This document shows positions 4,316-31,089 of a DNA stretch of 64,000 bases, one piece after another; the stretch's first letter is position 1; the number at the start of each line of letters is the position of its first letter. Made by a program: the position numbers and the translations under genes. The notes under the pieces are model-generated. The model was not told where the DNA came from. It ran no database searches and worked only from the letters and a program-made list of their open reading frames with translations. The stretch is from Escherichia coli. Its GTDB lineage: Bacteria; Pseudomonadota; Gammaproteobacteria; Enterobacterales; Enterobacteriaceae. The DNA is taken from assembly GCF_045037415.1 (NCBI RefSeq), contig NZ_CP173438.1. One strand, given 5' to 3'.

Positions 4316-7300
4316 GTGAGGCGATTGCCGGGGATTTTACTGCTTACTGGAGCCGCGCTCGTTGTGATCGCTGCCCTGCTGGTTAGCGGCCTGCGTATTG
4401 CTTTACCGCATCTTGACGCCTGGCGTCCGGAAATCCTCAACAAAATAGAATCCGCGACTGGCATGCCGGTAGAAGCCAGTCAGCTCTCAGCCAGCTGGCA
4501 GAATTTTGGTCCGACGCTTGAAGCGCACGACATCCGTGCAGAACTAAAAGATGGCGGCGAATTTTCGGTTAAACGCGTTACCCTGGCGCTGGATGTCTGG
4601 CAGAGCCTGTTACATATGCGCTGGCAGTTTCGCGACCTCACTTTCTGGCAGCTGCGCTTTCGCACCAACACTTCTATCACCAGCGGCGGTGGTAATGATA
4701 GCCTGGAAGCCAGTCACATCAGCGATCTGTTTCTTCGTCAATTTGACCATTTCGATCTCCGCGACAGTGAAGTCAGTTTCCTGACGCCATCCGGTCAGCG
4801 CGCCGAGCTGGCGATCCCACAGCTCACCTGGCTGAACGATCCACGTCGACACCGTGCGGAAGGCCTGGTAAGCCTCTCCAGCCTTACCGGACAGCACGGC
4901 GTGATGCAGGTGCGTATGGATTTGCGCGATGATGAGGGGTTGTTAAGCAATGGTCGCGTCTGGCTCCAGGCGGATGACATCGACCTGAAGCCGTGGCTCG
5001 GTAAATGGATGCAGGACAATATTGCGCTGGAAACGGCACAGTTCTCCCTTGAAGGCTGGATGACGATCGACAAAGGCGATGTAACCGGCGGTGACGTCTG
5101 GCTGAAACAGGGCGGTGCCAGCTGGTTGGGCGAGAAGGAAACGCATACGCTGTCGGTGGATAATCTGACTGCGCATATTACGCGTGAAAATCCGGGATGG
5201 CAGTTCTCTATTCCCGATACACGGATCACGATGGACGGCAAACCCTGGCCGAGCGGAGCATTGACGCTGGCCTGGATACCGGAACAGGACGTTGGCGGCA
5301 AAGACAATAAACGCAGTGACGAACTCCGGATTCGTGCCAGTAATCTGGAGCTGGCAGGGCTGGAGGGCGTACGCCCGCTGGTCGCGAAACTTTCACCTGC
5401 ACTGGGTGATGTTTGGCGCTCCACACAACCGAGCGGCAAGATTAACACTCTGGCGCTGGATATCCCGCTTCAGGCGGCAGACAAGACCCGTTTTCAGGCA
5501 TCGTGGAGCGATCTGGCCTGGAAGCAATGGAAATTATTACCGGGTGCGGAACACTTCTCCGGGACGCTTTCCGGCAGCGTAGAAAATGGTTTGCTTACTG
5601 CGTCGATGAAGCAGGCAAAGATGCCTTACGAAACGGTATTCCGTGCGCCACTGGAAATCGCCGACGGCCAGGCAACGATAAGCTGGCTGAACAATGACAA
5701 AGGTTTCCAGCTGGATGGGCGTAATATTGACGTTAAAGCCAAAGCCGTCCATGCGCGCGGCGGTTTTCGTTACCTGCAACCTGCTAACGATGAACCCTGG
5801 CTGGGTATTCTGGCTGGCATCAGTACCGATGATGGTTCACAAGCCTGGCGCTATTTCCCGGAAAACTTGATGGGTAAAGACCTGGTTGATTACTTAAGTG
5901 GCGCGATTCAGGGCGGTGAAGCGGATAACGCGACGCTGGTTTATGGTGGCAATCCGCAACTCTTCCCCTATAAACACAACGAAGGTCAGTTTGAAGTGCT
6001 GGTGCCGCTGCGCAACGCGAAGTTTGCCTTCCAGCCGGACTGGCCTGCATTAACTAACCTTGATATTGAACTGGACTTTATTAACGACGGTTTATGGATG
6101 AAAACCGATGGCGTTAATCTGGGCGGCGTGCGCGCGAGTAATCTCACCGCAGTGATCCCTGACTACTCAAAAGAAAAACTGCTGATTGACGCTGACATTA
6201 AAGGTCCGGGTAAAGCCGTTGGCCCTTACTTTGATGAGACACCGCTGAAAGATTCCCTGGGTGCGACCCTGCAAGAACTCCAGCTCGACGGCGATGTGAA
6301 TGCTCGCTTACATCTTGATATCCCGCTGAACGGCGAGTTGGTAACCGCGAAAGGTGAAGTGACGCTGCGTAATAACAGTCTGTTTATCAAACCACTCGAC
6401 AGCACCCTGAAAAATTTGAGCGGTAAATTCAGCTTTATCAATGGCGATCTGCAAAGTGAACCACTGACAGCAAGCTGGTTTAATCAGCCGTTGAACGTGG
6501 ATTTTTCCACCAAAGAAGGGGCAAAAGCCTACCAGGTCGCGGTGAATCTCAACGGTAACTGGCAACCAGCGAAAACCGGCGTTCTGCCTGCAGCGGTGAA
6601 CGAAGCATTAAGTGGCAGCGTGGCGTGGGATGGTAAAGTGGGCATTGAGCTGCCTTATCATGCTGGCGCGACGTATAACGTAGAGCTGAACGGCGATTTG
6701 AAGAATGTGAGCAGTCACTTACCTTCACCGTTAGCCAAACCTGCGGGTGAACCACTATCGGTAAACGTTAAGGTTGATGGCAATCTCAACAGCTTTGAAT
6801 TAACCGGACAGGCTGGTGCGGATAACTATTTCAATAGCCGCTGGTTGCTCGGTCAAAAGCTGACGCTCGATCGTGCTATTTGGGCGGCAGACAGTAAAAC
6901 GCTCCCGCCGTTGCCGGAACAAAGTGGCGTTGAACTCAATATGCCGCCGATGAATGGTGCCGAGTGGCTGGCCCTGTTCCAGAAAGGCGCGGCGGAGAGT
7001 GTCGGTGGTGCAGCGAGTTTCCCACAACACATAACGTTACGTACGCCTATGTTGTCGCTGGGAAATCAGCAATGGAATAACCTGAGTATTGTTTCGCAAC
7101 CGACGGCAAATGGCACCCTGGTTGAGGCGCAAGGGCGTGAAATCAACGCCACGCTGGCGATGCGTAATAACGCGCCGTGGCTGGCGAATATCAAATATCT
7201 TTATTACAACCCAAGCGTGGCGAAAACTCGTGGTGATTCAACACAGTCATCACCTTTCCCGACAACGGAACGCATTAGCTTCCGTGGCTGGCCAGACGCA

Positions 7301-23510: not shown

Positions 23511-24008
23511 ATGGATTTGTCACAGCTAACACCACGTCGTCCCTATCTGCTGCGTGCATTCTATGAGTGGTTGCTGGATAACCAGCTCACGCCGCACCTG
23601 GTGGTGGATGTGACGCTCCCTGGCGTGCAGGTTCCTATGGAATATGCGCGTGACGGGCAAATCGTACTCAACATTGCGCCGCGTGCTGTCGGCAATCTGG
23701 AACTGGCGAATGATGAGGTGCGCTTTAACGCGCGCTTTGGTGGCATTCCGCGTCAGGTTTCTGTGCCGCTGGCTGCCGTGCTGGCTATCTACGCCCGTGA
23801 AAATGGCGCAGGCACGATGTTTGAGCCTGAAGCTGCCTACGATGAAGATGCCAGCATCATGAATGATGAAGAGGCATCGGCAGACAACGAAACCGTTATG
23901 TCGGTTATCGATGGCGACAAGCCAGATCACGATGATGAAACTCATCCTGACGATGAACCTCCGCAGCCACCACGCGGTGGTCGACCGGCATTACGCGTTG
24001 TGAAGTAA
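23511..24008 (+). CDS. sspB: ClpXP adaptor SspB
   Basis: 165-aa ORF with acidic tail ending ...GGRPALRVVK. Confidence 0.95.
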   Translation: MDLSQLTPRRPYLLRAFYEWLLDNQLTPHLVVDVTLPGVQVPMEYARDGQIVLNIAPRAVGNLELANDEVRFNARFGGIPRQVSVPLAAVLAIYARENGAGTMFEPEAAYDEDASIMNDEEASADNETVMSVIDGDKPDHDDETHPDDEPPQPPRGGRPALRVVK

Positions 24009-24013
24009 AATGA

Positions 24014-24038
24014 AAACAGGCCCATGTGGCCTGTTTTG
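24014..24038 (+). terminator. Rho-independent terminator after sspB
   Basis: acaggcc-catgt-ggcctgt followed by tttt, 6 bp after the sspB stop. Confidence 0.75.
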
Positions 24039-24115
24039 CTATCTGTCATCTTTTCGCCTGACTTTGATACTGTGCTACGATAGCGTCGTTATTATCCGCT
24101 AACGCATTTTCCTGA

Positions 24116-24907
24116 ATGAGTCCTATGAACGCATTTGATCCGCAAGCTGAAGATTCTACTACCACTATCGGGCGCAACTTGCGCAGCCGCCCGCTGGCGC
24201 GTAAAAAACTCTCCGAAATGGTGGAAGAAGAGCTGGAACAGATGATCCGCCGTCGTGAATTTGGCGAAGGTGAACAATTACCGTCTGAACGCGAACTGAT
24301 GGCGTTCTTTAACGTCGGGCGTCCTTCGGTGCGCGAAGCGCTGGCAGCGTTAAAACGCAAAGGTCTGGTGCAAATAAACAACGGCGAACGTGCCCGCGTC
24401 TCACGTCCTTCTGCGGACACCATCATCGGCGAGCTTTCCGGCATGGCGAAAGATTTCCTTTCTCATCCTGGTGGGATTGCCCATTTCGAACAATTACGTC
24501 TGTTCTTTGAATCCAGCCTGGTGCGCTATGCGGCTGAACACGCCACCGATGAGCAAATCGATTTGCTGGCAAAAGCACTGGAAATCAACAGTCAGTCGCT
24601 GGATAACAACGCGGCATTCATTCGCTCAGACGTTGATTTCCACCGCGTTCTGGCGGAGATCCCGGGTAACCCAATCTTCATGGCGATCCACGTTGCCCTG
24701 CTCGACTGGCTAATCGCCGCACGTCCAACCGTGACCGATCAGGCTCTGCATGAGCATAACAACGTTAGCTATCAACAGCATATTGCGATCGTTGACGCGA
24801 TCCGCCGTCATGATCCTGACGAAGCCGATCGCGCGTTGCAATCGCATCTCAACAGCGTCTCTGCTACCTGGCACGCCTTCGGTCAGACCACCAACAAAAA
24901 GAAATAA
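24116..24907 (+). CDS. nanR: GntR/FadR-family sialic acid regulon repressor NanR
   Basis: 263-aa ORF with GntR-type HTH ([22 protein letters not shown]). Confidence 0.9.
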
Positions 24908-24970: not shown

Positions 24971-24993
24971 GGTATAACAGGTATAAAGGTATA
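24971..24993 (+). promoter_or_regulatory. NanR operator: three direct GGTATA repeats in the nanA promoter
   Basis: GGTATAacaGGTATAaaGGTATA at 24971..24993, 36 bp upstream of the nanA ATG. Confidence 0.75.
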
Positions 24994-28258: not shown

Positions 28259-29591
<1,333 letters not shown>

Positions 29592-29617
29592 AATTTAGTT
29601 GGATAGCTCGTTTTATA

Positions 29618-29644
29618 AATTCGCCAGACACTGTCTGGCGAATT
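29618..29644. other. Perfect inverted repeat (12-bp arms, 3-nt loop) at the yhcH/gltD convergent junction; possible bidirectional terminator hairpin
   Basis: aattcgccagac-act-gtctggcgaatt; contains GAATTC; no strong U-tract on either side. Confidence 0.5.
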
Positions 29645-29658
29645 CATTGTTACCTCGC

Positions 29659-31089
<1,431 letters not shown>

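Follow-up and report, generated by a model that had tools for sequence, protein, structure and literature searches.

The short sspB-nanR spacer of Escherichia coli, the dcuD cassette of other strains and a linked nanR haplotype

In Escherichia coli K-12 the genes sspB, dcuD and nanR occupy consecutive positions on the chromosome (b3228-b3227-b3226). [quoted passage not shown] A pan-genome study of E. coli placed it among 198 "extended-core" genes, a class found in the majority of strains but missing from some (PMC12595684). That study does no more than list dcuD, and its main text makes no reference to phylogroups; the restriction to a clade and the ancestral polarity of the locus are worked out here, and our literature search yielded no paper in which "dcuD" and "phylogroup B2" occur together. 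As for the regulator NanR, three dimers of the K-12 protein are known to assemble cooperatively on the (GGTATA)3 operator by means of their N-terminal 32 residues (PMC8012715).

Direct adjacency of sspB and nanR is already annotated in more than 1000 RefSeq genomes, and the short spacer analyzed below is an ordinary and widespread instance of a known gene-content polymorphism. The aspect of the locus that most deserves a look by specialists is the haplotype linked to it, in which the nanR promoter and the NanR N-terminus are deeply diverged from their K-12 counterparts.

The sspB-nanR junction and its distribution among E. coli genomes

The window that we analyzed is a stretch of 64,000 nucleotides from an E. 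coli genome. On its plus strand the genes zapE, rplM, rpsI, sspA, sspB, nanR, nanA, nanT, nanE, nanK and nanQ (yhcH) follow one another, and the spacer between the end of the sspB ORF (24008) and the start of the nanR ORF (24116) is exactly 107 bp long (24009-24115). The junction comprises the following features:

23511-24008, plus strand: sspB coding sequence (ClpXP specificity-enhancing factor, 165 aa), according to the ORF list and the RefSeq annotation of the identical SK1144 sequence
24009-24185, plus strand: diverged haplotype block linked to the presence or absence of dcuD, about 180 bp, comprising the spacer and approximately the first 70 nt of nanR (residues 1-23)
24013-24037, no strand assigned: hairpin AAAACAGGCC-CATGT-GGCCTGTTTT, presumed intrinsic terminator of sspAB
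24039-24049, plus strand: linker CTATCTGTCAT, defined by breakpoint mapping; the cassette of other genomes lies at its 3' edge
24050-24115, plus strand: conserved block upstream of nanR, presumed sigma-70 promoter, 66 bp, defined by multi-genus alignments
24053-24058, 24071-24074 and 24076-24081, plus strand: promoter-like landmarks within this block, i.e. a -35-like TTCGCC, TGTG and the -10 hexamer TACGAT, with a predicted transcription start near 24088
24116-24907, plus strand: nanR coding sequence as annotated (263 aa), according to the ORF list and the RefSeq annotation of the identical sequence

The product of sspB differs from its K-12 counterpart at two residues. No coding sequence of the DcuC family was found in the spacer or in the whole 64-kb window, where a tblastn search with K-12 DcuD as the query yielded only noise with E>3. 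On the other hand, in the K-12 genome ER2796 (locus L001), to which the interval was aligned, 1789 bp separate sspB from nanR and contain a DcuC-family gene of 455 aa, located on the strand opposite to sspB and convergent with it. This gene is dcuD (b3227), even though its PGAP label is "dcuC". The first-pass annotation of this DNA had placed sspB and nanR 107 bp apart with no dcuD between them, which is borne out by the ORF coordinates and by tblastn, and its statement that in K-12 dcuD is located between nanR and sspB and convergent with sspB is correct for ER2796; it had also described the spacer as a hairpin followed by some 80 bp of presumptive nanR promoter, in agreement with the 78 bp that follow the hairpin.

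PGAP names the dcuD orthologue (L001 2256-3623, as well as in RefSeq E. coli genomes generally) "anaerobic C4-dicarboxylate transporter DcuC" and gives it the symbol dcuC, with the consequence that searches by gene name confuse dcuD with the true dcuC (b0621).

A survey of 5426 complete E. coli genomes with the sspB-spacer-nanR query (megablast) revealed the contiguous arrangement in 1039 of them, and in the remaining genomes the match is interrupted at the spacer. The core of the spacer (24030-24125) is present in one copy in each of these 1039 genomes and in no other genome, also in blastn mode, and the DNA of K-12 dcuD finds a match in 4386 genomes. These two sets are complementary and together account for 5425 of the 5426 genomes (1039 + 4386), so dcuD has not been relocated elsewhere in the genomes with the short spacer. 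Positions 1-25000 of the window are 100% identical to many clinical genomes and are matched at an identity of at least 99% by 1042 genomes. Since this number, obtained over 25 kb of flanking core, is nearly the same as that of the spacer carriers, the short-spacer allele marks one large clade of E. coli and is not strain-specific. The named carriers include O25b:H4-ST131 strains, EC958, UPEC 536 and PMV-1, and the named strains with dcuD include K-12, O157:H7, ST69 and ETEC. We take ST131, EC958, 536 and PMV-1 to be members of phylogroup B2, and infer from these strain names that the short-spacer clade is phylogroup B2, including ST131 and the lineage of the window itself. The short spacer can be used as a simple clade marker.

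The dcuD cassette and the probable ancestral layout of the locus

A scan of species representatives with NanR yielded 80 loci, in each of which SspB, NanR and DcuD were located by tblastn; the genus Escherichia is incompletely sampled, as the scan did not return E. fergusonii, E. marmotae or E. ruysiae. Adjacent sspB and nanR genes with no dcuD between them were identified in E. albertii, Salmonella enterica subsp. arizonae, C. amalonaticus, C. sedlakii, Yokenella, Raoultella, Kluyvera, Trabulsiella, Lelliottia, Enterobacter, Pseudocitrobacter, Cedecea and Buttiauxella (the last judged from tblastn gaps only, which agree for the other unaligned dcuD-less loci). E69 and SCPM-O-B-8794, which are labelled E. 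coli but whose nanR genes are only 90-93% identical to that of the window, also lack dcuD. The spacer is occupied by dcuD only in K-12-type E. coli, in Escherichia sp. MOD1-EC7003, Escherichia sp. E1V33 and E. whittamii, and in the C. freundii complex, while among the genomes labelled C. amalonaticus both alleles, with and without dcuD, occur.

Seventeen dcuD-less loci were aligned, and in 16 of them, from E. albertii to Cedecea, the distance from the sspB stop codon to nanR is 92-131 bp, the seventeenth (L021) being left out of the lengths, as its sspB end could not be placed. In this locus (Citrobacter koseri NCTC10786, L021 ~5380-6000) tblastn aligns only residues 49-133 of SspB and the extrapolated frame meets an early stop codon, a finding that a frameshift, an error in the assembly or a shifted extrapolation of the frame could explain. 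The spacer of E. albertii is exactly 107 bp long and about 91% identical to that of the window. The hairpin, the linker and the TGTGnTAnGAT block can be aligned across the dcuD-less genera, and the spacers of dcuD-less Enterobacteriaceae (E. albertii, Salmonella enterica and others) differ from that of the window by ordinary divergence only, with the same hairpin, linker and promoter-like block. Because the same order, length and landmarks are found in dcuD-less outgroup genera, this comparison supports the short layout as the probable ancestral state for the family Enterobacteriaceae.

One of the options offered by the first-pass annotation, that the short spacer is the ancestral state relative to an insertion in K-12, can accordingly be retained as far as the ancestral state is concerned, but not with regard to an insertion specific to K-12, as the cassette is ancient and widespread (4386 of the 5426 E. 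coli genomes). The same annotation would have taken a normal adjacency of sspB and nanR with this spacer as evidence against its reading, and such adjacency is found in part, namely in 19% of E. coli and in most of the sampled Enterobacteriaceae. The gene order of K-12 is thus unsuitable as an ancestral reference at this locus.

In the K-12 locus the cassette corresponds to L001 2243-3935 (1693 bp). It consists of the dcuD coding sequence, which specifies 455 aa on the opposite strand, together with upstream DNA of 312 bp and a GC content of 33.5%, and contains no other gene. In genomes with dcuD the promoter block still adjoins nanR (K-12 L001 3936-4002) and the hairpin still adjoins sspB, and the retention of this block beside nanR places the insertion between the linker and the promoter block, at a point corresponding to 24049/24050 of the window. 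The lengths are in agreement, as the cassette exceeds the 11-nt linker by as much as the K-12 interval exceeds that of the window (1693 - 11 = 1682 = 1789 - 107). An initial reading of a blastn alignment (word size 7), according to which 75 bp (24039-24113) without a K-12 counterpart replaced 1758 bp, was rejected: the 66 bp proximal to nanR are positionally homologous in the two alleles but too diverged for BLAST, so that the actual difference is that between an 11-nt linker and a 1693-bp cassette.

In both Escherichia and Citrobacter the stop codon of dcuD is located 13-17 nt after the hairpin, and the nanR-side end of the cassette coincides with the same promoter block. Identical boundaries on the left and on the right in these two genera point to a single insertion event. 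The nucleotide identities of dcuD and of the nanR body, respectively, are 96% and 96% between K-12 and MOD1-EC7003, 92% and 92% between K-12 and E1V33, 91% and 91% between K-12 and E. whittamii, and 77-80% and 80-82% between K-12 and Citrobacter. Since the divergence of dcuD tracks that of its flanks, the cassette has co-diverged with them since about the split of Escherichia and Citrobacter, the insertion is ancient, and the cassette is neither specific to K-12 nor a recent acquisition of E. coli.

An origin of the cassette from a mobile element (an insertion sequence, a transposon or an integrative element) was considered and rejected. No repeats bracket the cassette ends in L001:2190-4020, where those detected apart from the sspB hairpin are short and imperfect and occur in two copies; dcuD is the only gene of the cassette, which encodes no transposase or integrase; and genuine plasmids carry no dcuD, only DcuC relatives of less than 43% identity.

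In two other genera the spacer is filled by different cargo. In Siccibacter turicensis (L060 3139-5691) it contains a gene for an autotransporter adhesin of 850 aa (TIGR01414 beta-barrel, E 2e-87), and in Enterobacteriaceae bacterium 89 (L056 3282-5906) an ORF of 874 aa that has no match in NCBIfam or Pfam. Because the cargo differs between these loci, the spacer seems to have accepted single genes repeatedly, which suggests that it is a recurrent site for single-gene insertions.

A diverged haplotype around the spacer and its origin

In the 68-bp stretch preceding nanR, identity to the window amounts to 91% for E. albertii, 90% for SCPM-O-B-8794 and 81% for E69, compared to only 48-52% for four dcuD-containing lineages of Escherichia (52% for K-12), which are 93-99% identical among themselves. 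Over 77 nt the corresponding values are 76-91% for dcuD-less and 49-51% for dcuD-containing Escherichia, and the two measurements together give 88-91% for E. albertii and SCPM-O-B-8794, bearing in mind that distances over a promoter block of 68-77 nt are noisy. Overall, the nanR promoter regions of dcuD-less and dcuD-containing Escherichia exhibit 48-58% identity, and the base in the loop of the hairpin is likewise linked to the allele. The divergence extends into nanR itself. Of the 39 nucleotides of this gene that differ from K-12, 14 are concentrated within its initial 66 nt, and the bins after that contain 1, 0 and 1. All seven amino acid differences between the two NanR proteins are found at residues 2, 3, 9, 11, 15, 16 and 17. 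The flanks, however, are very similar to those of K-12 (98.8-100% identity for sspB and 97% for the body of nanR). A second cluster of substitutions was observed further downstream in nanR (window 24710-24775, nt 595-660), where a single 66-nt bin contains nine of them, compared to 0-2 in most bins; all are synonymous, and the cluster may represent another short recombination patch.

We are confident in explaining these observations as follows: the 107-bp interval is very probably an uninterrupted spacer of the ancestral type, composed of a hairpin terminator and the nanR promoter and fixed in the B2 clade, in whose line the cassette was never inserted. The hairpin would end the transcription of sspAB, and the 66-bp block after the 11-nt linker would drive nanR as an extended -10 promoter. 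The absence of dcuD would then be due to the fact that the 1693-bp cassette never entered the line of descent of this allele, and the cassette would be an old single insertion that is now present in most other E. coli, in some cryptic Escherichia and in the C. freundii complex.

The alternative that survives best concerns only the route by which B2 came to carry this allele, and is compatible with the explanation given above. It is possible, if on the whole unlikely, that the B2 ancestor had a resident allele with dcuD, which was replaced by one of the ancestral type through homologous recombination with a dcuD-less Escherichia, the imported patch measuring some 180 bp plus arms. The narrowness and the sharp edges of the diverged block, evident from the distribution of the differences along nanR, speak in favor of such a replacement, as does the evidence of exchange at the locus: in L005 a spacer of the dcuD-less type is combined with a nanR 5' end of the K-12 type, a mosaic indicating that recombination happens inside the diverged block, and both alleles are found in genomes labelled C. 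amalonaticus. However, the block differs by about 9-24% from that of every sampled dcuD-less Escherichia, so none of these is a plausible recent donor, and a difference of this size is ordinary species-level divergence, which fits vertical retention equally well.

The seven differences between the NanR proteins (24119-24166) fall inside the disordered 32-residue N-terminal extension that is needed for cooperative binding to the operator (PMC8012715). All NanR biochemistry has been done on the K-12 version of the protein (PMC8012715). [quoted passage not shown] One could go further and propose that the alleles with and without dcuD, as two old and closely linked haplotypes that differ in the cassette, the promoter block and the NanR N-terminus, constitute a trans-species regulatory polymorphism instead of neutral variation in gene content, maintained by selection across Escherichia and Citrobacter and setting different levels or cooperativity of NanR. 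We regard this idea as improbable; if it were true, B2 strains and ExPEC would regulate the catabolism of sialic acid and the NanR-dependent targets unlike other E. coli.

The hairpin, the presumed nanR promoter and the neighbouring nanQ-gltD junction

The hairpin is located directly 3' of the sspB stop codon in nearly all genera. It is predicted to fold into a 10-bp stem with dG of -14.9 kcal/mol (z = -3.8), and none of 200 shuffled sequences was as stable. Its stem is altered on both sides in Kluyvera (CAGACC/GGTCTG) and in Cedecea (GCCAGTC/GACTGGC). On the plus strand the four U's are part of the stem, at its base, and GCUAUCU comes after them, and a terminator scan scored the minus strand only. 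The most likely function of the hairpin, judging from its position and fold, is the termination of sspAB transcription; in genomes with dcuD the same hairpin is found between the convergent sspB and dcuD genes, and there it could serve both of them. An Rfam scan of 23800-24300 revealed nothing near any gathering score. The linker that follows the hairpin is unlike the post-hairpin sequence of K-12 and similar to those in dcuD-less loci (gTTATCTGTCCCA in L038 and gTTATCAGCTGTCC in Trabulsiella), and a similar linker (gCTTTCTGTGCC) is also found after the hairpin in the Citrobacter loci with dcuD.

Sigma-70 promoters of the extended -10 type are characterized by TGn before the -10 hexamer, and a poor -35 element is usual among them. 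The block upstream of nanR resembles these promoters in that TGTG stands directly before a TAnnAT hexamer, with a poor -35 element 17 nt upstream, with the difference that in the window the promoter is predicted. TG at 24073-24074 is located directly upstream of TACGAT at 24076-24081, as expected for TGn followed by TAnnnT. The hexamer matches the -10 consensus at 4 of 6 positions and the -35-like element at 3 of 6, the latter being the reason why a strict scan for two hexamers called no promoter, as is to be expected of this class. Of 81 loci, 71 contain the TGTGnTAnnnT motif, which precedes the conserved ATG by 43-64 nt, and the invariant positions of the block (TG, T, A and the final AT) are those of the extended -10 element. 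In K-12 a homologous TGTGnTAnGAT block precedes this ATG of nanR by about 55 nt. The block is thus most likely to be the nanR promoter together with a short leader, and the promoter is predicted to have an extended -10 element (TGTGcTACGAT) and a weak -35 element. A CRP site, considered on account of the TGTGA of K-12, was rejected, as the second half-site is mis-spaced in K-12 and absent from the window, and conservation is confined to the extended -10 positions.

With regard to the start codon of nanR, codon 1 of the annotated frame (24116) is ATG in only 9 of the 17 aligned spacers and AAG in the Escherichia lineage E69. Codon 4 (24125), on the other hand, reads ATG in every one of these 17, as it does in 73 of 81 loci; the true start of nanR may be Met4, which would yield a NanR of 260 aa. 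The NanR operator upstream of nanA is intact in the window, with three copies of GGTATA at 24971-24976, 24980-24985 and 24988-24993.

The short U-tract, the lack of a -35 consensus and the absence of a promoter call in the scan, as well as the location of sspB and nanR on the same strand only 107 bp apart, could also be accommodated if nanR had no promoter of its own and were transcribed by read-through from sspAB over a leaky hairpin, the conserved block then being a regulator-binding site or a leader. We consider this improbable. [quoted passage not shown]

Much less probable still is a secondary deletion, in which a K-12-like B2 ancestor would have lost the cassette, leaving the 107 bp as a scar. 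In favor of such a scenario, B2 lies within E. coli, which mostly carries dcuD, and in both flanks, sspB and the body of nanR, identity to K-12 reaches 97-100%. However, after a deletion both sides of the junction should be of the K-12 type, whereas the 68 bp beside nanR resemble E. albertii and SCPM-O-B-8794 (90-91%) rather than K-12 (52%); since the K-12-type sequence is missing beside nanR, the spacer is not a deletion scar. Moreover, the linker matches those of dcuD-less genera and not the sequence that follows the hairpin in K-12, and sequence comparison detected no remnant of the cassette in the window. The other option of the first-pass annotation, a strain-specific deletion, is rejected on the same grounds, i.e. 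the roughly 50% identity of these 68 bp to the K-12 type, and also because the allele is clade-wide. We assign a negligible probability to an error of assembly or sequencing and to a deletion confined to this isolate, which are refuted by the identical junction in 1039 independently assembled complete genomes.

Apart from the spacer inherited, in the explanation that we favor, in its uninterrupted form, the window differs from K-12 in gene content at the other end of the nan cluster. Here, nanQ/yhcH (29127-29591) directly abuts gltD (29659-31077, minus strand), with a gap of only 29592-29658. The nanQ-gltD interval of ER2796 comprises yhcG, a DUF1120 gene (yhcF) and yhcE, none of which is present in the window, and that of MG1655 presumably also includes yhcD, yhcA and gltF, which are absent from the window as well. 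The direct nanQ-gltD junction is contiguous in 946 of the 5426 genomes, compared to 1039 for the short spacer, so the two sets are not identical. ER2796 itself carries an IS5-associated deletion in this region (L083 7879-9377) that leaves partial mtgA and partial yhcE, which makes it an unfaithful K-12 reference for the gltF-yhc region.
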